Notes under the pieces: model-generated
Seen by the model: only the letters and a program-made list of their open reading frames with translations
The model's database searches: none
What the model was told of the DNA's origin: nothing
Made by a program: the position numbers and the translations under genes
Shown: piece after piece, positions 5,197 to 25,947 of the stretch
How the letters are laid out: every line of letters starts with the position of its first letter
Numbering within the stretch: the first letter of the stretch is position 1
Assembly: GCA_035758545.1 (NCBI GenBank)
Contig: DASTWQ010000073.1
Span: forward strand, 7,274 to 71,273
Length of the DNA: 64,000 nt
Origin: Holophagaceae bacterium
GTDB lineage: Bacteria > Acidobacteriota > Holophagae > Holophagales > Holophagaceae
Direction of reading: 5' to 3'

Positions 5197-8097
5197 TCAG
5201 AAGCTGAACCGCGCGCCCAGCTGCACCTGGCGGCCGGAAGGGAAGCCACCCACGCCCTGGGACGTGCTCAGCAGGGGATTGCCGTCATTGCTGGTCTTCG
5301 CGACGACATCATAGGTGTACTGATTGTGGTCGTTGAAGACATTGAAGACGTCGGCGCTCAGGGTGAGGGCCAGCTTCCGGGTGAATCGGAAGGCCTTGCG
5401 GAGGCCGAGATCCACGTAGGTGGTGGAGCCGTACCGGAAGGCGTTCCGGCCGGAATCCATGCCGTTCACGTAGAAGCGGTCGTTGCCGAAGATGCCGTCC
5501 TTGTTCAGGTCGCTGCCATAGGTGAGGCTGTAGGGCGATCCGGAGGCATATTTCACGGTGGTGCTGAACTGGATGCCGGTGTGGCGCTCCAGGTAGCTGA
5601 CGTAGCCGGTGACCACGTCGCGGCGGTCCGTGTCGGCGTAGCCCCAGTCGCCGCCCAGATTCTGAGTGTTCTGGGTGGAGTAGCTGGAGAAGTTCCGCTC
5701 GTTGGAGTCGTTGTCCTTGTTCGTGGAGCGGGTGTAGAAGAGCTGGGCCTCGAAGGGGCTGCCCTCCTGGTGGAACTTGGCGCTGAAGGTCAGGGCGTGG
5801 TACCAGCTCTCGACATCCGAGGTGTAGGCCATGATCTGCTTGTAGGCCGTGTTCGGGCGGACCGTCGGGAACACCTCGCGGCCGGCGGCGTTGGCGGTGG
5901 GCGTGCCCAGGTTCAGGTCCCTCAGGCGCTCCAGGTTCACGGCGTGCGCCGCGGCCCACTCCAGGCCCAGGACCCAGCCCCCGAAGGCGCGCTCCGCGCC
6001 CAAGCTCAGGCGGTCGGTGCGGGGGTTCTTGAAGTTCTGGTCGAAGGTGAAGACGTTGGTGGTGGGGATGGTCGCGCCCGTCGGGAAGGACGAGAAGGAG
6101 AAGGGATTGGCGGCGTTGAAGGCGCCGTTGATCGGAATCCCGAAGGTGGCGGCGTCGCCGGGGAAGAAGGACACGGAGGCGCCGCGGTAGCTGTTCGCCG
6201 CGAAGACCTGGTAGAGGAACACCGAAGGGGTCCGGCTGATGTAGCGACCGCCATTGAGGCGGACAACCGTCTTGCTGCCTTCTCCGCCGGGGGTCCAGGT
6301 CAGGCTGAACCGGGGCGAGAAGCCGCTGTCATTGGGGATCTTCGAGGTCAGGGGCAGGGGATTCGCGAGAATGTTGTTGGTGTCGAGGATCGGGAAGTCA
6401 GGATGCTCCTGACGGTCCCAGCGAAGACCCAGGCCGAACTTCAGGTAGTCATTCAGGCGCTGATCGAACTGCACAAAGGCCGCCATCTCCTTCTCGGAGG
6501 CGTCGAAGGTCCCCGCCTGCTTGGCGGTGAGGCCGTTGAGCCCGAAGAACTGCTGATAGCTGGACCAGGCGCCGTTCTCAAAATTGGTGAGGCTGGTGAA
6601 CCGGTAGCCGCCGGCGGAGAAGGCGGCGAACGTCTCGGAGACCTTGGTGTTGTTGTAGTCGATACCGGCCTTCAGCTGCGAGGTGGCGGTGACGAAGGAG
6701 AGGGTGTCCTTCAGCTGGGTGCGCTTGGTCTCGAATTCGCGGGTGAAGGGGTAGGTGCCGTAGTAGCTCGTGTTGGAGCCGTTCTGGCTGATCTGCACCT
6801 GGGGCAGGGTGGAGTGCGCTTCGCGGGGCAGCTCGTCCTTGACGTAGTTGACCTCGGCCTCGTTGAACCAGTTGGCGTTGATGGCCCAGTTCCACTGGAC
6901 CACGCCCTGGAGGGTCTTCACGTCATCGGAAGCGGTATTGCTGTACCCGGTGGAGATGCCCGTGCTGGTGAGGCCCTGGAACTTGGAGTAGTTGATGCGG
7001 AACTGCAGGGCGTGGTCGGCGTTCACGATCCAGTCGATGCGGCCGAAGGCGGTGTCGGAGTCCGACTTCTTGTCGTAATTCCCGCCCTGGGCGATCAGGG
7101 CCGCGTCATTGGCATTCGCGGGATTGAGGGTCAGCGGGTTGTCCTGGCCGCCCCAGATCTGGGTGATGGGCTCCGTGCGGCGCTGGCCGTCATAGACGAA
7201 GAAGTAGAAGAGCTTGTCCTTGATGATCGGGCCGCCCACGGAGAACCCGAACTGGTTCTGGGTGAAGTCGCCGATCTGCTTCTGGCTCCCGTTGATGACA
7301 GGCTCGTTGGCGATCATGTCCTTGGGGCGGGTGTAGAAGAAGACGCTGCCGCCGAAGTCGTTGGTGCCGCTCTTGGTGATGGCGTTCACGTAGCCGCCGC
7401 CCATGCGGCCGTACTCCGCGGAGGCGCCGTCGGTGACCACCTGGTACTCGCGGATGGCCTCGATGCTGACGGTGAAGGGGGTGGTGCCCTCGGCGGCGCC
7501 GGTCTGGCCGCCGAAGAAGGGCTCGTCCACGTCGCCGCCGTCGATCTGGATGGCGGTGTTCACGCCGCGCTGGCCGGCGATGGCCAGGTTGCCGCGCTGG
7601 TTGTCGACGATCACCTGCGGGGCCGAGGTGGCCAGGCTGGTGAAGGAGCGGTTCAGGACCGGCAGGTTCTGCAGGGCGTCGGGGTTGATGATGGCGGCCT
7701 GGGTGGCGCGCTCGGCGTCCACGGGGGCGGCCTGGGCGACCACCTCGACGGTGGCCACGGACTCGGCGGCCAGCTTCACGTTCAGGGGGGCGGCATCGCC
7801 GAGGTTCAGGTTCTCGTGGATGTTCGACGCAGTCTGGTAACCAGGCTTCGACACCGTCACCGCGTAGGGGCCGACAGGCAGGTTGACGGCGAGGTAGCGG
7901 CCGTTGCCGTTGGTCTGGACGACGCGGGTGAAGCCGGTCTCGTCGTTGCGGATGGAGATGGTGGCGTCAGCGAGCGGCTGGCCATTGGAATCGGTCACCT
8001 GGCCGGCGAGCTGGACGTTGACGCCCTGGGCCGCGAGGGGGGCGGCGGCGACAAGCAGGGCCATCAGGGCCGAGCCCTTCAAATGCCTCATGGTCAT
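5197..8097 (-). CDS. TonB-dependent outer-membrane receptor with CarboxypepD_reg-like N-terminal domain
   Basis: Signal peptide; VTDSNGQPLADATISIRN...GRYLAVNLPVGPYAVTVSKPGY (carboxypeptidase-regulatory fold); a long beta-barrel region ending in QLGARFSF. The start was chosen at MTMRHL because GGAGGA lies 7 nt upstream. Confidence 0.85.
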   Translation of the reverse strand: MTMRHLKGSALMALLVAAAPLAAQGVNVQLAGQVTDSNGQPLADATISIRNDETGFTRVVQTNGNGRYLAVNLPVGPYAVTVSKPGYQTASNIHENLNLGDAAPLNVKLAAESVATVEVVAQAAPVDAERATQAAIINPDALQNLPVLNRSFTSLATSAPQVIVDNQRGNLAIAGQRGVNTAIQIDGGDVDEPFFGGQTGAAEGTTPFTVSIEAIREYQVVTDGASAEYGRMGGGYVNAITKSGTNDFGGSVFFYTRPKDMIANEPVINGSQKQIGDFTQNQFGFSVGGPIIKDKLFYFFVYDGQRRTEPITQIWGGQDNPLTLNPANANDAALIAQGGNYDKKSDSDTAFGRIDWIVNADHALQFRINYSKFQGLTSTGISTGYSNTASDDVKTLQGVVQWNWAINANWFNEAEVNYVKDELPREAHSTLPQVQISQNGSNTSYYGTYPFTREFETKRTQLKDTLSFVTATSQLKAGIDYNNTKVSETFAAFSAGGYRFTSLTNFENGAWSSYQQFFGLNGLTAKQAGTFDASEKEMAAFVQFDQRLNDYLKFGLGLRWDRQEHPDFPILDTNNILANPLPLTSKIPNDSGFSPRFSLTWTPGGEGSKTVVRLNGGRYISRTPSVFLYQVFAANSYRGASVSFFPGDAATFGIPINGAFNAANPFSFSSFPTGATIPTTNVFTFDQNFKNPRTDRLSLGAERAFGGWVLGLEWAAAHAVNLERLRDLNLGTPTANAAGREVFPTVRPNTAYKQIMAYTSDVESWYHALTFSAKFHQEGSPFEAQLFYTRSTNKDNDSNERNFSSYSTQNTQNLGGDWGYADTDRRDVVTGYVSYLERHTGIQFSTTVKYASGSPYSLTYGSDLNKDGIFGNDRFYVNGMDSGRNAFRYGSTTYVDLGLRKAFRFTRKLALTLSADVFNVFNDHNQYTYDVVAKTSNDGNPLLSTSQGVGGFPSGRQVQLGARFSF

Positions 8098-8248
8098 GGA
8101 AAGTTCCTCCAAAAGTCAGGGTGCATAGGGCGCTCTGATATACCAAGCACAAAGTGGTGAACTTCCGGCTTCATCACTGCGCGGAACAAGGCCATGAAGC
8201 CCTTGTAAGCCCTCAAGCTGCTAGGCTTCCTCCATCCCGGGAACCCCC

Positions 8249-9991
8249 ATGACGCGCCTCCGATCCTGCCTGCCCGCCCTGCTCGTCGTCCTTCCCGCCG
8301 CCGCCCAGGGCTTCATGCCGGTGTCCGAGGTCCAGCCGGGGATGAAGGGCTACGGCAAGACCGTCTTCAAAGGCGGGAAGATCGAGCGCTTCGAGTTCGA
8401 GGTGCTGGGCATCCAGGCGGGCGCGGCCCCCGGCGGCGCCCGCATCCTGGTGCGCTGCAGCGGCGGTCCCCTGGCGGAGACGGGCATCATCGCCGGCATG
8501 AGCGGGAGCCCCTGCTACATCGGCGGCCGGCTGGTGGGCGCGCTCTCCACGGGCTTCACCTTCGAGAAGGACGCCATCGGCGGCATCACCCCCATCGAGG
8601 CCATGGTGGAGCAGCTCAAGGACGTGCCCGAGCAGCCCGGCCGCGGCACGCCCCTCGTCCTGCCCAAACTGGCCCCGCCGGCGGTGCTGAAGTCGGCCCT
8701 GCAGGGGCAGATGATCCCGGTGGCCTCCCTGTTCCCCGCGGAGCCCGGCGCCCTGCCGCTGCCGGTGGCGGGTTCGGCGCTCGGGCCGGAGACCCGGGCC
8801 CTCTGGCAGGGTCTGCCGGTCCAGTTCCTCGCGGCCCCGGCCCTCGCGCCGGATTCGAGCGCCTCCGCCAGCCCTCTGGAGCCCGGCGGCATGGCCGCCA
8901 TCAACCTGGTGCAGGGGGACCTCAACCTCACGGTGGGCGGGACCATCACCTACGTCCAGGGGCGGAAGCTGCTGCTCTTCGGCCATCCCCTCTTCAACCT
9001 GGGCGCCGTGGACCTGCCGCTCTGGTCCGCCAGCGTGGCCGCGGTGCTGCCCAGCTACGCCTCCTCCACCAAGCTCGCGCTGCCGGTGAAGGAGGTCGGC
9101 GCGCTCCGGGCGGACCGCCTGACCGGCGTGGCGGGGGTCCTCGGCGCCCAGGCCCGCATGATCCCGCTCCGCATCGGCCTCAACCTCGGGGGCCGGAAGA
9201 ACCTCGCCTTCAGCTACGAGATCATGGACCACCCGCTGCTCACGCCCCAGCTGGCGGCCACGGTGCTGAGCCAGACCCTGGAGTCGCAGGTGCGCGGGGT
9301 CGGCTTCCAGAGCCTCTCCCTCCAGGGGAACATCAAGCTCGCGGGGCAGGATCCCATCCAGATCGACAGCGTGGTCGCGGACTTGAACTCGACGCGGCTC
9401 GCCATGTTCCTGGGGGGCATGCTGCAGGCGGTCTGCTTCAACCCCTTCGAGAAGCCCGTCTTCGAGGGGATCAGCCTCACGGTGAAGGCGGAGGAGAAGC
9501 TCGACCTCGCCGGCGTGGCGGGCGTGCGGATCCTCAAGGGCCGAGTGCGGCCCGGCGAGACCCTTCCCATCCTCGTGACCCTGCAGAACGTCCAGGGCGT
9601 GCGGGAGCAGGCCACCCTCAACATTCCCATCCCGGAATCCGCCCGCCCCGGCAAGGCGACGCTGCTGGTGGGCGACGGCCTCAGCCTGATGGCCGCGGAT
9701 CCGGACCAGCAGTCCATCCAGGTCTCGAGCCTCACCGACGTGGTGCGGCTCCTCAACGGCGCCCTGAGGAACAACCATGCCTACGCTCTGCTGGTGCAGG
9801 ACGACGCCGGCGTGGGCGTCCGCGGCGGCCGAATCGAGGGCCTGCCGCCCTCGGTGGCGAACCTGGTGGCCTCGGACGGCGGCGCGGACAGTGGCCGCCT
9901 CAAGCGCCGCATCATCGGCCGGAGCGTCCTGCCCCTGGACCGGGAGGTCCGGGGCCTGGCCTCCATGGACCTCGAGATCGAAGTCGACTGA
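8249..9991 (+). CDS. SpoIVB-like peptidase S55 domain protein (secreted)
   Basis: Signal peptide, then EVQPGMKGYGKTVFKG...GIIAGMSGSPCYIGGRLVGA, the S55-type serine protease motif GMSGSP. Confidence 0.7.
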   Translation: MTRLRSCLPALLVVLPAAAQGFMPVSEVQPGMKGYGKTVFKGGKIERFEFEVLGIQAGAAPGGARILVRCSGGPLAETGIIAGMSGSPCYIGGRLVGALSTGFTFEKDAIGGITPIEAMVEQLKDVPEQPGRGTPLVLPKLAPPAVLKSALQGQMIPVASLFPAEPGALPLPVAGSALGPETRALWQGLPVQFLAAPALAPDSSASASPLEPGGMAAINLVQGDLNLTVGGTITYVQGRKLLLFGHPLFNLGAVDLPLWSASVAAVLPSYASSTKLALPVKEVGALRADRLTGVAGVLGAQARMIPLRIGLNLGGRKNLAFSYEIMDHPLLTPQLAATVLSQTLESQVRGVGFQSLSLQGNIKLAGQDPIQIDSVVADLNSTRLAMFLGGMLQAVCFNPFEKPVFEGISLTVKAEEKLDLAGVAGVRILKGRVRPGETLPILVTLQNVQGVREQATLNIPIPESARPGKATLLVGDGLSLMAADPDQQSIQVSSLTDVVRLLNGALRNNHAYALLVQDDAGVGVRGGRIEGLPPSVANLVASDGGADSGRLKRRIIGRSVLPLDREVRGLASMDLEIEVD

Positions 9992-19294: not shown

Positions 19295-19843
19295 ATGCTT
19301 CGCAGCGATGGCAGGCAGGTGACGCTGAAGCAGGATCGTTTTCACCTGGACCGGGTCTGGAAACGAGAACCGGAGCCTGGAACCGTCCAGTACTACTTCG
19401 GGTGGCGCACATCCGTCGCTCAGGCCCTACGTCTGCTTGAGCCAGATACCGACTTCACTCTTACGGACATCGGAATGTGGGGGGATCTAGGCTGGATCGA
19501 CCTGAAGCGAGTACCAAGCCTCCAGACGGTTGGAGAGGCGCTCGATTGGCTGCTGAGCCATCCGGATCACCATTCGGACCTGGTCAATTTCGATTGCCGG
19601 ATCGCCGGTGAATTTGACCTGTGCAGCCATGATGATGCAGAGGTGACACTGCAAGGACCCGCGGGTGAGTTGATCGAGAGATGGGCGGGTGCTCTGTTCC
19701 TCAGCCGTGGATTTGAAGCCACGATGATGCTGAATCTCATGCAAGAGAATCTCGGGAAGTGCATTGCGATAGAGGCGCCGTCCCAGATCCTAGGGATCTA
19801 CGAGACCCTCGATGAATGCAATGAGGCTCATCCAGAGAAGTAG
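19295..19843 (+). CDS. hypothetical acidic protein in a low-GC patch
   Basis: 182-aa ORF with clearly lower GC than its flanks and no competing antisense ORF. I recognise no family. Confidence 0.55.
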   Translation: MLRSDGRQVTLKQDRFHLDRVWKREPEPGTVQYYFGWRTSVAQALRLLEPDTDFTLTDIGMWGDLGWIDLKRVPSLQTVGEALDWLLSHPDHHSDLVNFDCRIAGEFDLCSHDDAEVTLQGPAGELIERWAGALFLSRGFEATMMLNLMQENLGKCIAIEAPSQILGIYETLDECNEAHPEK

Positions 19844-21155: not shown

Positions 21156-22004
21156 ATGGCCCCCCGCGCGATCCGCACCCTCGTCACCGGCCGGCCCACC
21201 CAGGACGGCAACGGCGTGCCCCTCACCCGGGTGCTGCCGAACCCCGCCCTGGGCCGGCTGGACCCCTTCCTCATGCTGGACCACTTCGGCCCGCTCACGC
21301 TGCCGCCCGGCAGCGACGCGGGCTTCCCGCCCCATCCCCACAAGGGCTTCATGACCTACACCTACCTGGTGCAGGGCGCCTTCCGCCACCGGGACAGCCG
21401 CGGCGGCCACGGCCTCCTCGCCCCCGGCGGCGCCCAGCTCATGGTGGCGGGCCGCGGCATCGTCCACGAGGAGATGCCCGTGCCCGAACATCTCGAGACC
21501 GGCGGCGCCATCGAAGGCTTCCAGCTCTGGATCAACCTGGCCAAGGCCCACAAGGGCATGGAGCCCGGCTACACGGACCTGCCCGCGGAGGTGCTGGCCT
21601 GGCGGCCCATCCCCGGCGGCCGGCTCAAGGCCCTGGCGGGATCCTGGCTCGGCGAGGCGGATCCCATCTCCGTGCCCACGCCCTTCGCCTACGCCCATGT
21701 GGAGCTGGAGCCCGGCGCCCGCTTCGACCACCCGATCCCCGCGGGCTGGAACGCCGCGGTCTTCGTGCTGGAGGGCGCCGCCTCGATCGCCGGCGGGACC
21801 GCCGGGAAGGACCAGCTCGCGGTGCTCGACACGGAGGGCGACCTCGTCCTGGAGGCGCCCGAGGGCGCCGCCGTCCTCGTCTTCGCGGGCCAGCCCCTGA
21901 ACGAACCCGTCGCCCAGTACGGCCCCTTCGTCATGACCACCGAGGCCGAGCTGGAGCAGGCCTTCCAGGAGTTCCGCCGCGGGGCGATGGGCTCCCTGCA
22001 CTGA
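21156..22004 (+). CDS. pirin family protein (two-domain)
   Basis: GFPPHPHKGFMTYTYLVQG..HRDS and QLWINL. Confidence 0.9.
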   Translation: MAPRAIRTLVTGRPTQDGNGVPLTRVLPNPALGRLDPFLMLDHFGPLTLPPGSDAGFPPHPHKGFMTYTYLVQGAFRHRDSRGGHGLLAPGGAQLMVAGRGIVHEEMPVPEHLETGGAIEGFQLWINLAKAHKGMEPGYTDLPAEVLAWRPIPGGRLKALAGSWLGEADPISVPTPFAYAHVELEPGARFDHPIPAGWNAAVFVLEGAASIAGGTAGKDQLAVLDTEGDLVLEAPEGAAVLVFAGQPLNEPVAQYGPFVMTTEAELEQAFQEFRRGAMGSLH

Positions 22005-22027
22005 CCTTCAGGAAGCCGCGCTTCGGG

Positions 22028-22216
22028 CTACTTCGAACGTGCCCAGACCAGCGCCACGATGGCGCCGCCAAGACACATACCGGTGCCGATGAGATGCACG
22101 AAATCCACCGCTCGAATTTGGGCGAGGGTCGGGCGGGCGAGCATGCTGACAAGGCCTAAGAGACCAAAACCTGCGAGTACGAAGGCGACCCGAAGGGATT
22201 CACGGCGTGAGCTCAT
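22028..22216 (-). CDS. small two-TM hypothetical protein
   Basis: MSSRRESLRVAFVLAGFGLLGLVSML...GTGMCLGGAIVALVWARSK contains two hydrophobic helices. An alternative start at 22276 is possible. Confidence 0.45.
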   Translation of the reverse strand: MSSRRESLRVAFVLAGFGLLGLVSMLARPTLAQIRAVDFVHLIGTGMCLGGAIVALVWARSK

Positions 22217-22336
22217 GGATGAGCACCCCTCAAGCGTGGTGGATGGGAAGTCGGAACGATAGGTGCTGCCTAACACCCGGCATGTAGCCGGCGCCTGCAG
22301 TTTTGCGCGCGTCGGCTACTTGCCAGACATTAGCCG

Positions 22337-23137
22337 TCATTGTTTATCTTCTCGCGAGCGTCTCAGCGCCTGGGCTTCATTCAGAATGTCTTCACGCGCT
22401 TCCCGCTCAAAGTTCTCAAGCTTGAGGCGCTCGAAGCCTTCAGGGTTGCGCTCGCAGTGATAATGATGGTGACGCATACGCGCCTCTTCTGCTTCCCTTT
22501 GCGCCTCCGCCTTCGACTTTGGCCACTTACCCATAAGCCGAAGCGCTTTTTCTACAGCTTTATATAGGCTGTAAATTAGCACTATGACGCCCAGCCAGTC
22601 ACTCCACCACTCAAGAATCGCGACGCATGCTGGAACCAGTGCGGCCCAGGCGAAAACGATCCACCACCCTAGGCGCAGGTGCTTTGCTTTCTCCAGGGCT
22701 TGCCCCCGCAGGTGCTGCTTGGTCCTAAACGGAATACCGGCGTAGATCCTTTTGAGGTACGAGACGTCGAGCGCATTCTTGGGGAGCTCATCGTTCGTTA
22801 GCAAGCGCCATTCAGAAATTATCGCATTTGTCTTGGCGTCAAAGTATCCAATCAGGTGGCTGCAGGACCGGTAACTTTCAAGGCATATTAGGCTTCCTGT
22901 GTCATCGAAAGCAGAGACCATGATCGGTACTGGGTATCGCTCCAACCATGCGACTAGTTCTGTCTCCATCGTCGCTGCAATGTCTTCCGGCGCTTTGGCC
23001 ATATCGAGAACGACAATCTGGACTGTTGCAAATTGGTGCCCTGAGATCGGCGGGTGGTATTCAACGAAGTACCAGCCTCGGTCTTCTTTCGTTGCATCGA
23101 AGAACAGCTGATGCGTCTCCGGCATTGGAATGCCCAT
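22337..23137 (-). CDS. hypothetical protein: soluble N-domain, 2-TM hairpin, charged His-rich C-terminal helix
   Basis: 266-aa ORF in low-GC DNA. TM hairpin LGWWIVFAWAALVPACVAILEWW / WLGVIVLIYSLY. C-terminal KAEAQREAEEARMRHHHYH...REAREDILNEAQALRR. Confidence 0.65.
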   Translation of the reverse strand: MGIPMPETHQLFFDATKEDRGWYFVEYHPPISGHQFATVQIVVLDMAKAPEDIAATMETELVAWLERYPVPIMVSAFDDTGSLICLESYRSCSHLIGYFDAKTNAIISEWRLLTNDELPKNALDVSYLKRIYAGIPFRTKQHLRGQALEKAKHLRLGWWIVFAWAALVPACVAILEWWSDWLGVIVLIYSLYKAVEKALRLMGKWPKSKAEAQREAEEARMRHHHYHCERNPEGFERLKLENFEREAREDILNEAQALRRSREDKQ

Positions 23138-23231
23138 AATGACGGCTAACGGTGGTAGTAAGTGGATCCGCCGCGACGCGGTGGGGTCCGCTTGGGAGAT
23201 AGGTTAGGCATTTGAGCCTCGCCGAATTTGA

Positions 23232-23693
23232 TTAACCCTGACGATCTTGATTGCCTTCTGTATTGGCAGAGCTATTCGTAGAGATGCTCTTAGAAATAGC
23301 AAACCCTGCCACAGCAGAGAGGATCGGCAACCCCGCTTCTGCGCTGATTGCCTTGGTGAGGAGGAGTAAGGCAAGGATGATTACAATCAATACGGCAACA
23401 ACAACCTGCAGGTAAGTAGTCCAAAATTCGTTCCGACGCAGGAGAAAGTCTTTGTTTGAATCAACAAAATGCCTCGGCAGATTCGCACGAAATCCAATGC
23501 CCGACGCGTAATTGAGGAATCGATCCATGATTTCCATCCATTCATATCGACTGCCAAGGATGGATTGATCGGCGAGGTATCTCCCAAAGCGGAAGATGCA
23601 CCAAAGCGCAAACGTGCCGATGAAAAGTACGATGGTGCAGTACCAGGTGGTTGGTGACTCGAACCAGGTCATTACTCGATCTCCTTGTTTCAA
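23232..23693 (-). CDS. hypothetical membrane protein (about 3 TM)
   Basis: 153 aa. Hydrophobic segments WYCTIVLFIGTFALWCIF, YLQVVVAVLIVIILALLLL and GLPILSAVAGFAI. Low-GC codon usage. Confidence 0.6.
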   Translation of the reverse strand: MKQGDRVMTWFESPTTWYCTIVLFIGTFALWCIFRFGRYLADQSILGSRYEWMEIMDRFLNYASGIGFRANLPRHFVDSNKDFLLRRNEFWTTYLQVVVAVLIVIILALLLLTKAISAEAGLPILSAVAGFAISKSISTNSSANTEGNQDRQG

Positions 23694-23728
23694 TTTTGAG
23701 TTGAGACAGCACGCATCATCCAGATGCT

Positions 23729-24373
23729 TTACTTTCGACGAGAGCGGCGGCCTTGAGACCGCCCAGCGGACTCAAAGACGTCCGCCCGACGGAGGGGTTG
23801 GGCGTCGGGCTCATCGTGAACGAGGATTCCGCCAGAGGACGAGTGAAGGTGGTCCGATTCGTGGAGACCGAATAGGCCGCCGAGGTAAACCATGAGTGCT
23901 TGGAATCGGCCTTTAGCCTGGAAAACCCACTCGCGGTTGATCGACTTGTACCACTCAGGTTGGAGTGCATCACCAAGCACCATCTTCTCCGGTTCGGCCT
24001 GGTCTGACAGCTTCGGTCCGAGAACACGCTCCGGTTTGCCATGGGCCAGCTTGTCTCTCAACCGAAAGACCTCGGTTGCAAACTGAAGAGGCTCTTGACC
24101 CCAGTTGGGATCGCATCCGGCGGTGGTATGGAGGACATTTACCTTCGACTTCCACGACAGCCGCTCTATCTCGTCCCAAAACGGAATCGCTCGGGCACCG
24201 AGCGAGTTGAGGTATGACTCGATCGAGAATGCAATAAAGACGACGACCGGTGCCAACGGCAAACGCACTTGATCATCTCGTTCAAGCAGGCCGTACATGG
24301 ACATCAGTGCGCCTACTGACCTGCTCTGTGCGGTGAAATCTGAGAAGGCCTGGTAGTAGCGCATGTACGGCAT
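23729..24373 (-). CDS. HEPN-like putative RNase
   Basis: 214 aa. FRLRDKLAHGKP matches the HEPN R-x4-H motif (R[ND]xxxHG form). An upstream helix IAFSIESYLNSLG carries a conserved-type acidic residue. The start was set at the compositional switch; the ORF-track extension to 25333 is antisense to rarA. Confidence 0.6.
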   Translation of the reverse strand: MPYMRYYQAFSDFTAQSRSVGALMSMYGLLERDDQVRLPLAPVVVFIAFSIESYLNSLGARAIPFWDEIERLSWKSKVNVLHTTAGCDPNWGQEPLQFATEVFRLRDKLAHGKPERVLGPKLSDQAEPEKMVLGDALQPEWYKSINREWVFQAKGRFQALMVYLGGLFGLHESDHLHSSSGGILVHDEPDAQPLRRADVFESAGRSQGRRSRRK

Positions 24374-24498
24374 TCTGACGCCTAACTTTGAAATAGGCGA
24401 ACAGGTTGGTGGAGGGCCAATCCAACCTGACACGGTCGCTCGGGTGGGTGTGAAGGATCTTTGCGGCTTAGGATAGCCGCAGCAGGCGGGCCGGAGCC

Positions 24499-25947
24499 TC
24501 AGTCGCCGTCCTTCGGCTCCGCGATCAGGGCGCGGCGGAGGGTGAAGCGGGGGCCGCCCAGGCGGGCGAGGGCGCGGGCGAGGGCCTCGCGGCTGCAGGC
24601 CAGGTCGGCGGCCCAGGCTTCCATCGGGAGGGTGCCGCCCTCGGGGTGATCGGCCACCCAGGCCTCCCACAACGCGCCGAGCCGGGCGGTGTCGGGTTCT
24701 TCGCGGTCGCGCCAGCTGCGCTCCTGGGGGCGGATGGGCTGGTGGAAGCGCTCGCCCTGCAGCCGCTCCGGCAGGAAGGCCTGGGGCTTGTCGTAGTCGC
24801 TGTGGGAGTAGTGGTAGCCCTCGCCGCGGCCGGCCTTGCGGGCGGTGGCGGTGTGGGCGTCGCGGATGGCGTCGGGGATGGGCGCGTCCTCGGCGGCCAG
24901 CGCGGCGTCGATGGCGGTGATGGTGGCGTTGCTCTTGGGGGCGTTGGCCACGTAGATGACGGCCTGGGCCAGGGGGATGCGGGCCTCGGGCCAGCCGATC
25001 TGCTCCACGGCGCGGCTGGCGGCCTCGGCCAGGAGGAAGGCCTGGGGATCGGCGTTGCCCACGTCCTCCGCCGCCGTGACCATCAGGCGCCGGGCGATGA
25101 AGCGGGGGTCCTCGCCGCCGCGGATCATGCGGGACACGTAGTAGAGCGCGGCGTCGGCGTCCGAGCCCCGCAGGCTCTTCTGGAAGGCGCTGGCCAGGTC
25201 GTAGTGGCCGTCGGCGCGGTCGAACATCATGCGCCCGCCCAGGGCGTTCTGGAGCGATTCCAGGTCCGGCGCCTCCATGCCGAGCCAGATGTCCAGGCCC
25301 GACAGCGCGGACCGCAGGTCGCCGCCGGCCCACTGGGCCAGCCAGTCGAAGGCCTCGGAGGGCTGCGGCGCGCCGGGCCGCTCCTGGGCCCAGGCCCGCT
25401 GCAGCACCGTCCGGATGCTGGCGGGCTCCAGCCCCTTCAGGGCGATGAGCGTGCAGCGGCTGCGGAGCGCGGGGTTCAGGTAGAAAGCTGGATTCTCCGT
25501 GGTGGCGCCGATGAGCACCGCCTCGCCCCGCTCCAGGAAGGGCAGCAGGATGTCCTGCTGGGCCCGGTTGAAGCGGTGGATCTCGTCCAGGAAGATCACC
25601 GGCGCCGCGCCCTTGAAGAGGGGCATGGAGGCCTGGTCCAGGAGGAACTTCTTCAGCTCCGCCGCGGAGCCCGTGACGCCGCTGAACTCCACGAAGCCCC
25701 GGCCCGCCTGCTCCGCGAGGATGCGGGCGAGGGTGGTTTTGCCGGTGCCCGGCGGGCCCCAGAGCACCATCGAGGGCAGCCTCCCCCCGGCCGTCAGCCG
25801 CGACAGCGCCCCCTTGGGCCCCAGCAGGTGGTCCTGCCCCACGACCTCGTCGAGGGCCTTCGGGCGCATGCGTTCGGGGAGCGGGGCGGCGGGGATCAAG
25901 CGGTACCTGGGAATTCCCAGCTTAGCGGCGGGAGGAGGCCCCGGCAC
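24499..25947 (-). CDS. rarA: replication-associated recombination protein A (AAA+ ATPase)
   Basis: PERMRPKALDEVVGQDHLLG, Walker A GPPGTGKTT, Walker B IFLDEIHRFN, and ATTENP. Confidence 0.9.
   Translation of the reverse strand: MPGPPPAAKLGIPRYRLIPAAPLPERMRPKALDEVVGQDHLLGPKGALSRLTAGGRLPSMVLWGPPGTGKTTLARILAEQAGRGFVEFSGVTGSAAELKKFLLDQASMPLFKGAAPVIFLDEIHRFNRAQQDILLPFLERGEAVLIGATTENPAFYLNPALRSRCTLIALKGLEPASIRTVLQRAWAQERPGAPQPSEAFDWLAQWAGGDLRSALSGLDIWLGMEAPDLESLQNALGGRMMFDRADGHYDLASAFQKSLRGSDADAALYYVSRMIRGGEDPRFIARRLMVTAAEDVGNADPQAFLLAEAASRAVEQIGWPEARIPLAQAVIYVANAPKSNATITAIDAALAAEDAPIPDAIRDAHTATARKAGRGEGYHYSHSDYDKPQAFLPERLQGERFHQPIRPQERSWRDREEPDTARLGALWEAWVADHPEGGTLPMEAWAADLACSREALARALARLGGPRFTLRRALIAEPKDGD

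Follow-up and report, generated by a model that had tools for sequence, protein, structure and literature searches.

A low-GC islet in an uncultured Holophagaceae bacterium is probably an integron cassette array lacking an integrase

We analyzed a low-GC islet located between rarA and two pirin genes in a stretch of 64,000 nucleotides (hereafter, the window) from contig DASTWQ010000073.1 of a Holophagaceae bacterium (assembly GCA_035758545.1). The islet comprises four open reading frames (ORFs), named here A to D, which all lie on the minus strand with short gaps between them, as the original prediction had described and as the list of ORFs confirms. According to that prediction, the four ORFs are plausibly a horizontally acquired conflict operon made of a HEPN-like protein and three orphan membrane proteins, a combination that had no place in any described system. 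We found instead that the islet fits a published definition. [quoted passage not shown] We give this reading a probability of about 0.85. In other words, the element is an ordinary, partly decayed cassette array devoid of integrase, rather than a system of a new type.

The sites called attC are imperfect palindromes with the boxes R'' (RYYYAAC) and R' (GTTRRRY) at their two ends, and their folded bottom strand is the substrate of the integron integrase IntI. A typical site is 55-140 nt long and includes an R stem, unpaired spacers, an L stem in which some bases are extrahelical, and a variable loop. The crossover catalyzed by IntI occurs at G/TT, which is where cassettes begin, and the TTRRRY at the 5' end of a cassette is complementary to its own R'', both being derived from one site in the circular form. 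By definition, a CALIN has two or more attC sites that share a strand and are separated by less than 4 kb, and intI is missing from its vicinity. The default distance to intI is 4 kb, a 10-kb check was also used, and most CALIN have fewer than six sites (PMC4889954).

To search the window for attC sites we used two covariance models, neither of which includes any sequence of the window. The first one (R1) was made from ten sites of 64-84 nt, each being the attC found after an A gene in another metagenome. The second (R2) was made from the 59 sites that R1 found in loci of the A, B, and C families. Both were searched against the two strands of the whole window (128 kb of strand), R1 being run without filters. 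The ten sites of R1 have a common structure of 23 pairs, with compensatory changes in 13 of them. In this structure, 87.8% of the cells are paired, against 30-37% with slid partners, and the covariation score is 0.50, against 0.06-0.14 with slid partners. The two best matches of R1 in the window are at 23803-23726 (minus strand, 22.9 bits, E = 0.0058) and 23209-23144 (minus strand, 13.5 bits, E = 0.68). R2 ranks the same sites, attC_A and attC_B, first (26.6 bits, E = 0.0016) and second (17.7 bits, E = 0.12), and its next match scores 10.1 bits. The top two matches of both models coincide to the base, and on the gene strand, with the attC_A and attC_B predicted between the genes (Table 1). Such an exact coincidence of two top matches with predicted intergenic sites is not plausibly due to chance.

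For comparison, the best R1 match in 1.15 Mb of control loci scored 16.2 bits, and the best R2 matches scored 25.1, 20.8, and 17.2 bits. Two of the latter, in control rarA loci (L098, 3771-3840, minus strand, 25.1 bits; L051, 2301-2370, minus strand, 20.8 bits), may be genuine isolated attC sites. In 431 kb of loci of the A, B, and C families, R1 identified 59 sites at E <= 0.05, of which 58 are on the gene strand, and these sites frequently form arrays of 4-5. Some of these sites flank homologues of B and C, and the model therefore generalises beyond the A family. A home-made scanner combining a regular expression with the folding energy was discarded because it is unspecific in GC-rich DNA: it gave 12.5 matches per 100 kb of control DNA and missed two real sites. 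When we aligned seven attC sites of distinct cassette families with MAFFT, only the R boxes lined up, which was unusable for a model, hence the choice of homologous attC sites of A-family cassettes for R1.

The coincidence between model matches and intergenic sites also bears on the idea that the islet stems from another mobile element, such as a prophage remnant, an integrative element, a transposon, or a miniature inverted-repeat transposable element, and that its attC-like hairpins are coincidental. Some A homologues do lie in a prophage (L002) or close to a tyrosine integrase (L003-5). Yet scans of viral contigs returned a single locus for A, a single one for B, and none for C, and these are therefore not typical phage genes. 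Furthermore, we saw no transposase, integrase, or terminal repeat at the borders of the islet and no tRNA gene in the window. We regard this origin as barely credible.

The boundaries of the cassettes can be read from their core sites. Four of the five GTTAGSC heptamers of the window fall inside the islet, whose coding strand has three when 0.31 are expected from local shuffles (P = 0.005). A GTTAGGC at 579-585, in the interval between groES and groEL, was dismissed as a chance match. Core sites precede A (GTTAGGC, 24386-24380, 6 nt upstream of its first ATG), C (GTTAGCC, 23150-23144), and D (GTTAGGC, 22274-22268). The start of cassette B has no clean core site and shows only a degenerate GTAAAGC. 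Between B and C, one finds in succession the stop codon of B, GCCTAAC, 52 nt, GTTAGCC, 6 nt, and the ATG of C, such that the crossover point of attC_B (G/TTAGCC) is the start of cassette C. The bottom strand of attC_B folds canonically, with an R-box stem, 9/9 unpaired spacers, and a bulged L stem (-13.0 kcal/mol, z = -2.4). That of attC_C has a folding energy of -19.4 kcal/mol (z = -3.7), and its minimum-energy fold forms the bulged central stem only. The R'' of attC_C is homologous to the R'' of the C cassettes in the loci L019 and L006.

The ends of cassettes A and C are complementary, as expected because the two ends of a cassette derive from one attC. In cassette A, the 5' end GTTAGGCGTC and the 3' end GACGCCCAAC, at the normal position of the stop, are complementary at 9/10 positions, with one T-to-C change. 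In cassette C, a perfect 12-nt inverted repeat (TTAGCCGTCATT / AATGACGGCTAA) brackets the ORF and joins the 5' end of the cassette to its own R''. The TGA stop of C, which is part of AATGACGGCTAA(C/T), comes shortly before the conserved R'' GGCTAA(C/T), and the R'' begins one base past the stop. In the islet, this stop sits in AATGACGGCTAAT and is followed by a strong hairpin, GTTAGGC, and ORF D. When the DNA of cassette C was compared with four unrelated loci, TTAGCC, located 6-7 nt upstream of the ATG, was the exact starting point of the homology, which ran to the R''. The base before TTAGCC is a G in all aligned C loci except L008, where it is a C.

The site attC_A can be aligned with its counterparts in other A cassettes (e.g., in L106), but both of its boxes depart from what is expected. 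Its R'' is GCCCAAC (23803-23797), whereas the consensus of the family, GCCTAAC, contains the TAA with which the gene stops. Its R' is GTAAAGC (23732-23726), where GTTAGGC is expected. A single T-to-C change in R'' has thus turned the stop TAA of gene A into CAA, and the ORF is read through into attC_A up to the TAA within GTAAAGC. This accounts for a 26-residue C-terminal tail of A that is absent from the 188-aa homologues. The ORF from 24373 to 23729, previously taken at face value, is thus artificially long.

Altogether, the islet contains two or more attC sites on the same strand and less than 4 kb apart (attC_A and attC_B, identified with self-built models): they are separated by 594 nt, and attC_C lies a further 875 nt on. 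No intI was found nearby. A scan of ten large ORFs within ~10 kb revealed no tyrosine-recombinase domain (PF00589) in any of them, the other genes of the flanks having been assigned by homology and conserved gene order. The islet fits the CALIN definition because it is an array of attC sites without tyrosine recombinase within ~10 kb, in a housekeeping neighborhood. It is not a complete integron, since we found no recombinase gene in the ORFs scanned within ~10 kb and no promoter-like site at the array. Hence, the absence of tRNA and integrase noted in the original prediction holds for the window and for the ORFs scanned, respectively. The claim that there are no obvious direct repeats at the borders missed the attC sites and the GTTAGSC core sites that separate the genes.

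Several observations weigh against the assignment to a CALIN. The search for an integrase covered this window only, ~10 kb around the islet. The covariance models were built by ourselves from cassettes of the same gene families, in place of the curated attC model of IntegronFinder, and their E-values are rough. Taken alone, attC_B is marginal (E = 0.12-0.68), and attC_C is not recovered by R2 and comes only sixth with R1 (8.7 bits, E = 7.5), on the opposite strand. The R boxes of attC_A are degenerate, R'' and R' being complementary at 4/7 positions, and all that can be recognised of the 5' end of cassette B is GTAAAGCATCTG, where GTTAGGCATTTG is expected. At the other end of the array, cassette D has no attC and stops 23 nt from the stop codon of pirin2, which means that the 3' junction is not preserved. 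Finally, 112 nt that neither model matches lie between rarA and the first core site.

Table 1. Features of the islet and its two native flanks in the window.
Feature	Position	Strand	Length	Remarks
rarA	24499..25947	-		Native flank upstream of the array; GC3 0.97; 74-82% identity to 19 Holophagaceae/Geothrix genomes
Spacer	24387..24498	-	112 nt	Between the rarA stop and the first core site
Core site GTTAGGC	24380..24386	-		R' type (GTTRRRY); crossover G/TT between 24386 and 24385 is the 5' edge of cassette A
Gene A	23729..24373	-	214 aa	HEPN-superfamily protein (likely); 211 aa from ATG 24364 in NCBI; homologues ~188 aa
attC_A	23726..23803	-	78 nt	Degenerate; top match of both covariance models
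Gene B	23232..23672	-	146 aa	Membrane protein; ORF open from TTG 23693; N-terminal transmembrane helix
attC_B	23144..23209	-	66 nt	R'' GCCTAAC (23209-23203), R' GTTAGCC (23150-23144); second-best model match
Gene C	22337..23137	-	266 aa	N-terminal alpha/beta domain (~10-140), two-helix transmembrane hairpin, C-terminal helical tail
attC_C	22268..22335	-	68 nt	R'' GGCTAAT (22335-22329), R' GTTAGGC (22274-22268); from inspection, folding, and R'' homology
ORF D	22028..22216	-	62 codons	Two predicted transmembrane helices; terminal truncated cassette remnant (22267-22005) without attC
pirin2	21156..22004	+		Native flank convergent with the array; GC3 0.97; order with pirin1, USP, and nadC conserved in relatives

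The abrupt switch in composition that drew attention to the islet was borne out. The GC content is 0.546 between 22005 and 24386, against 0.720 in the remaining window. In segments of 300 nt, it is 0.48-0.63 over ~22050-24450 and 0.70-0.78 on both sides. Only 19 of the 425 segments are below 0.60: 15 in the islet, three in another ORF (E, 19295-19843), and one at the groES end of the window, where the first such segment arises because the region upstream of groES has a lower GC content. At third codon positions (GC3), A, B, C, and D have 0.66, 0.55, 0.60, and 0.67, respectively, against 0.96-0.98 in rarA, the two pirin genes, and nadC. The cassettes (49-57%) are ~20 GC points below their host (72%). 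The foreign DNA was previously thought to extend up to 24498, but its left edge is most likely at 24386, i.e., at the crossover point of the first core site (G/TTAGGC). The remaining spacer is either native intergenic DNA, which would be a secondary insertion site, or a decayed attC or attI. Neither R1 nor R2 matched it, no terminator-like or promoter-like site was predicted in it, and its comparison with the relative L028 revealed a shared patch of 18 nt only, which is not significant.

We then compared the locus with those of relatives, which were obtained by scanning species-representative genomes with the RarA of the window. This resulted in 19 Holophagaceae/Geothrix loci (L024-L042). In the window, rarA is followed outwards by a CBS-domain gene, msrA, and nifS, and the other side of the islet has the two pirin genes, USP, ORF E, and nadC. 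The order rarA, gap, pirin2, pirin1, USP (and nadC) is kept in all relatives whose contigs reach far enough. The gap between rarA and pirin2 is 12 nt in two genomes, 59, 451, and 615 nt in three others, and 1.0-3.2 kb in the rest, about ten of which have there a gene of 523-539 aa. The DNA of these gaps has the native GC content, and A to D are absent from it. As the relatives keep the order of the flanking genes around gaps of native composition that never contain A to D, the islet is a lineage-specific insertion at a variable junction. The horizontal acquisition proposed in the original prediction is thus upheld, by the composition and by the pattern of presence and absence. A search for the insertion point by similarity between the ends of the islet and the junctions of relatives gave short, non-significant matches only. 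The junction itself harbors other genes across the group: a membrane protein of 261-264 aa in two relatives, a VWA-like ORF of 312 aa in one, and, in one, an ORF of 498 aa beside the gene of 535 aa.

The source of the sequence is a metagenome-assembled genome ("MAG TPA"), and the contrast in composition is extreme, which raises the question of a mis-assembly, i.e., a low-GC fragment of another organism spliced into a Holophagaceae contig. However, the fragment lies between genes that are neighbors in the relatives, with the conserved order continuing on both sides, which a chimera would normally break. It also begins precisely at a cassette core site, and a second low-GC insert with a single gene (ORF E) is found 2 kb away in the same contig. 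We consider an assembly artifact very improbable.

How did the array get there? CALIN may originate from the loss of intI, from rearrangements, or from integration at secondary sites (PMC4889954), and IntI was shown to insert cassettes at genomic GWT sites (10.1101/2022.09.11.507474). IntI may have inserted the block at a secondary site of the chromosome, or the block may be what remains of a rearranged array. Another possibility is that a sedentary chromosomal integron resided at this locus and has lost intI and attI. The loss of intI is a documented source of CALIN, chromosomal integrons are present in Acidobacteria (PMC8352920), the attC sites of the islet are decaying, and a decayed attI or attC could make up the spacer upstream of A. 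Against this, the junction is free of cassettes and integrase in all 19 relatives, and holds 12 nt in two of them and genes of native GC content in others. Also, there is no signal of an integrase pseudogene in the flanks, occupied by the conserved rarA and pirin genes. We thus consider a resident integron unlikely. Insertion at a secondary site is favored because the relatives lack cassettes and two of them have almost empty sites.

In the array, each of the three cassettes consists of one promoterless ORF followed by its attC. The array now seems to be decaying: both R boxes of attC_A are mutated, with the loss of the stop of A, and the last attC would have been lost as well. We found no sigma-70-like promoter in the islet, and no terminator was predicted between rarA and A. 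If the genes are expressed, the likeliest source would be transcription reading through from rarA, a gene of the same strand.

Are the four genes one functional unit? Their shared strand, short gaps, and foreign composition, together with the HEPN-like character of A, are what one would expect of a single defence or abortive-infection operon acquired horizontally, with a HEPN effector and membrane partners, and defence functions are known to abound in integron cassettes (10.1101/2024.07.02.601686). Yet homologues of B, C, and D were never found near A homologues in 76 loci (9 plus 67 from metagenomes, searched with tblastn). Homologues of C (12 loci) and of B (9 loci) always occur without the other genes of the islet. 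The GC content differs between the four parts (0.57, 0.49, 0.53, and 0.61 from A to D), and a search of PADLOC-DB 2.0 gave no significant match to a defence system: A, C, and D matched nothing, and B matched RTasSLATT at E = 0.18 only. Most importantly, attC sites separate the genes, and A, B, and C are hence independent cassettes, whose families recur in differing arrays and contexts, as expected from independent mobility. As A, B, C, and D never co-occur, an outcome that the original prediction itself had set against its operon, we reject the co-functional operon, which we think has very little chance of being real. The cargo genes A, B, and C would rather be functionally independent, with A as a stand-alone HEPN protein.

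The remaining interest of the islet is its cargo. The proteins A, B, and C are 100% identical to VFT46_04050, VFT46_04045, and VFT46_04040 over the slightly shorter forms of NCBI, which labels them hypothetical (the contig carrying these genes has 77,259 nt). The original prediction could name no family for the proteins of the islet, and indeed we found no significant match in Pfam, PADLOC, NCBIfam, or PHROGs for A, B, C, D, or E. They are not all orphans, since at E <= 1e-3 we identified 238 homologues of A, 235 of B, and 383 of C, none of which has a Pfam domain.

The family of A is large, its profile matching 957 representative clusters (50% identity) at E <= 1e-3. The residues E52, N56, R106, D107, H111, and G112 are invariant among its 20 close relatives. 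Across 90 close and distant members, the invariant residues are F49, E52, N56, W66, R106, and H111 (consensus ...EAYLN...FRNxLAHGK). Protein A and its 20 close relatives reach no Pfam HEPN model, even at E < 10. Among 90 remote relatives retrieved with the profile of the family at E <= 1e-11, 29 matched HEPN_RiboL-PSP (PF18735, best E-value 4e-6), 18 matched HEPN_MAE_28990 (PF18737), and 10 matched RTasHEPN of PADLOC (best E-value 4e-5). These remote matches, and the invariance of R106 and H111 in the RDKLAH motif, support indirectly the HEPN-like character initially attributed to A. The structure predicted by AlphaFold is all-alpha (pLDDT of 85-95 in the core), and its Foldseek neighbors include HEPN toxins and Csm6, all non-significant (E-values of 0.78-7, TM-scores of 0.32-0.57). 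Searches of PDB sequences with profiles of the family gave nothing meaningful. The case for HEPN is thus tempered by the best Foldseek match to HEPN toxins, which is not significant (E = 0.78), by hhalign, which detected no relationship between the A family and the HEPN_Swt1 protein present in L019, and by the lack of a significant direct profile match for any of the cargo proteins. We conclude that A is likely a member of the HEPN superfamily, in a family without Pfam model, and probably a metal-independent RNase using R106 and H111. It is plausibly a single-gene effector of stress response or abortive infection, any role in defence being an inference.

Elsewhere, A genes also have the marks of cassettes. 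In 28 of 63 loci, their stop TAA is within or next to an R''-type box (NYYYAAC, mostly (GAT)GCCTAAC). In 14 of 42 loci, a GTTAGRC is found 10-25 nt upstream of the ATG, when ~0.006 are expected per 40 nt. The 5' end (GTTAGGCAT...) is complementary to the 3' end (...ATGCCTAAC), and in metagenome loci TTAGGCAT... at the 5' end is the complement of ...ATGCCTAA at the 3' end. Four independent contexts were observed for the homologues of A: next to metabolic genes, in a prophage (L002, with Mu F/capsid genes and Peptidase_U49 as neighbors), adjoining a Ralstonia tyrosine integrase, and between DUF2442 and thioesterase genes. No neighbor gene is conserved across the examined loci. In the islet, cassette A has no adjacent antitoxin gene of the kind found in type II toxin-antitoxin modules such as HEPN-MNT, because it holds a single ORF. 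In the locus L142, a homologue of A (8001-8552) preceded by GTTAGGC lies directly downstream of an ORF of 481 aa (6484-7929), whose N-terminus (KLFISYSW...) looks like a TIR-type domain.

Judged from their sequences, B and C are conserved families of membrane-protein cassettes. The C-terminal half of B is strongly conserved (RRNEFW...AEAGLPILS..GFAI.K), and its matches to known families are weak and inconsistent. In other genomes, B is a canonical single-gene cassette, with GTTAGGC, the ORF, and GCCTAAC in L172, and GTTAGGT and ACCTAAC at the two ends in L174-178. An identical protein of this family (P0268) has different neighbors in L174-L178: a gene of 200 or 164 aa upstream, and one of 340 or 151 aa downstream. 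In L174, a fragment of 90 aa with PF00589 (1437-1709) upstream of the B homologue may be the remnant of an integrase. The closest homologue (59% identity; L017, 7001-7560) is solitary, between LysR and RF-1-domain genes and not far from a pirin gene. The sequence after it can be aligned with attC_B but has mutated boxes (GCCCACC ... CTTCCCC), and the whole looks like a fossil single cassette.

Protein C has an invariant or near-invariant motif, M-x-H-H-H-Y-H-C-x-x-N-P, in the tail that follows the transmembrane hairpin (residues 221-232), which suggests metal binding. Its predicted structure (pLDDT of 82.6) has no significant Foldseek match, the top ones being subunits of the tRNA-splicing endonuclease, over the N-terminal domain (E-values of 0.016-0.07, TM-scores of 0.17-0.37). 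The homologues of C were found after a PhdYeFM antitoxin, after a gene of 268 aa by a large helicase, after an Rce1-like gene near an MmeI-type restriction enzyme, and after a pair made of DUF5343 and HEPN_Swt1. The latter is the locus L019 (1217-2496), where the closest homologue (79% identity) is part of a cassette array bounded by attC sites at 1075-1206 and 2523-2580 and is preceded by a textbook attC of 58 nt (GGCTAAC...GTTAGCC). The cassette before it has two genes, DUF5343 and a HEPN_Swt1 protein of 189 aa (motif RSRNAIMH). In L010-13, the C homologue is flanked by two attC-like repeats of 117 and 132 nt with 80% similarity. In these same loci (L010-L013, GC content of 0.41), C and an acetyltransferase gene are each flanked by a pair of repeats 80-82% similar (in L010, 5857-5973 and 6784-6915, and 6920-6975 and 7837-7892), in what looks like a sedentary array with homogeneous attC sites, beside genes for MmeI-type restriction-modification and an Rce1-like (CPBP) protease.

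The last unit, D, may not be a gene. It has no NCBI annotation, is absent from the protein collection, and had no tblastn match in any fetched locus. Its DNA is foreign, given its GC3 of 0.67. Of the two starts initially considered, only the one giving 62 codons (22216-22028) is plausible, because the GTG at 22276 overlaps the R' box of attC_C.

Two other regions of the window deserve mention. ORF E (19295-19843, plus strand, 182 aa) is a second low-GC insert with a single gene (GC 0.57, GC3 0.66), between nadC and USP, which are directly adjacent (~20-28 nt) in the relatives L036, L037, and L039. Its protein (VFT46_04020) is a singleton cluster with no family match. We considered ORF E as a fifth cassette and rejected it, as there was no core site or attC nearby, either by eye or with R1 and R2. 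Upstream of groES (start at 139, plus strand), the region 100-180 has an inverted repeat, TTAGCACTC-N9-GAGTGCTAA, which resembles the operator of HrcA, the controlling inverted repeat of chaperone expression (CIRCE).

These results replace a tempting new four-gene defence system by a well-understood architecture. They also illustrate the signs by which cassette arrays can be recognized in raw sequences: orphan genes on the same strand, GTTRRRY shortly before their starts, and stop codons in or next to RYYYAAC. The islet documents an array without integrase in an uncultured Holophagaceae, in which the decay of an attC is rewriting the C-terminus of a protein. It also brings to light three conserved cassette families without Pfam model, above all the HEPN-type family of A, which has hundreds of relatives, recurs in cassette arrays, prophages, and islets flanked by integrases, and is common in environmental integron cassettes. 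Since recent work found many compact anti-phage genes in integron cassettes, it would be reasonable to include the A, B, and C families in functional screens.

Like the CALIN described in 2016 (PMC4889954), the islet carries two or more attC sites on the same strand within 4 kb, co-oriented promoterless cassettes of one ORF, and no intI nearby. It is also small, and its cargo, with no function assigned, is unrelated to resistance cassettes. It differs from that set in that its sites were found with self-built models instead of IntegronFinder, that one of these sites has degenerated and no attC is left at the end of the array, and that its host is an uncultured Holophagaceae (Acidobacteriota) with a GC content of 72%, when the cassettes have 49-57%. 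The islet also resembles the insertions at attG sites, i.e., single attC sites lacking integron-integrases (SALIN) and small CALIN, described by Loot et al. (10.1101/2022.09.11.507474): it is intergenic between conserved housekeeping genes, absent from relatives, free of transposon or integrase context, and has a 5' junction at G/TT. In these insertions, the 3' junction is expected to be an attC minus its last 6 nt. This junction is not preserved in the islet, and the mechanism of insertion is hence not demonstrable.

Regarding the cargo, A resembles the HEPN-MNT modules (e.g., PDB 8xeh) in having a small domain, likely of the HEPN type, with an Rx4-6H motif, and these gave the best fold match of its model, which is non-significant. 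Unlike them, cassette A has no MNT or other partner gene (its core site is 6-25 nt from the ATG), and no sequence similarity is detectable. Other parallels are the families RiboL-PSP (PF18735) and MAE_28990/MAE_18760 (PF18737), with which A has in common a predicted all-alpha protein of ~190 aa, the invariant motif R-[DN]-x-L-A-H-G (Rx4H with a polar residue after R), and an upstream invariant E...N. In contrast to these, the A family has a conserved C-terminal ESDHL motif and reaches no Pfam HEPN model, and it appears to be a separate family without Pfam model. A further parallel is Esos, an anti-phage cassette of the chromosomal integron of Vibrio cholerae with only a HEPN-like domain (Darracq et al., 10.1101/2024.07.02.601686). 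Compared by description only, A is likewise a single-gene cassette without partner gene, whose sole recognisable feature is a HEPN-like domain. One may tentatively propose, at odds clearly below even, that the A family is a widespread integron-borne stand-alone HEPN RNase acting, like Esos, as an antitoxin-free effector of abortive infection or growth arrest, and that B and C are further one-gene membrane effectors from the pool of environmental cassettes.

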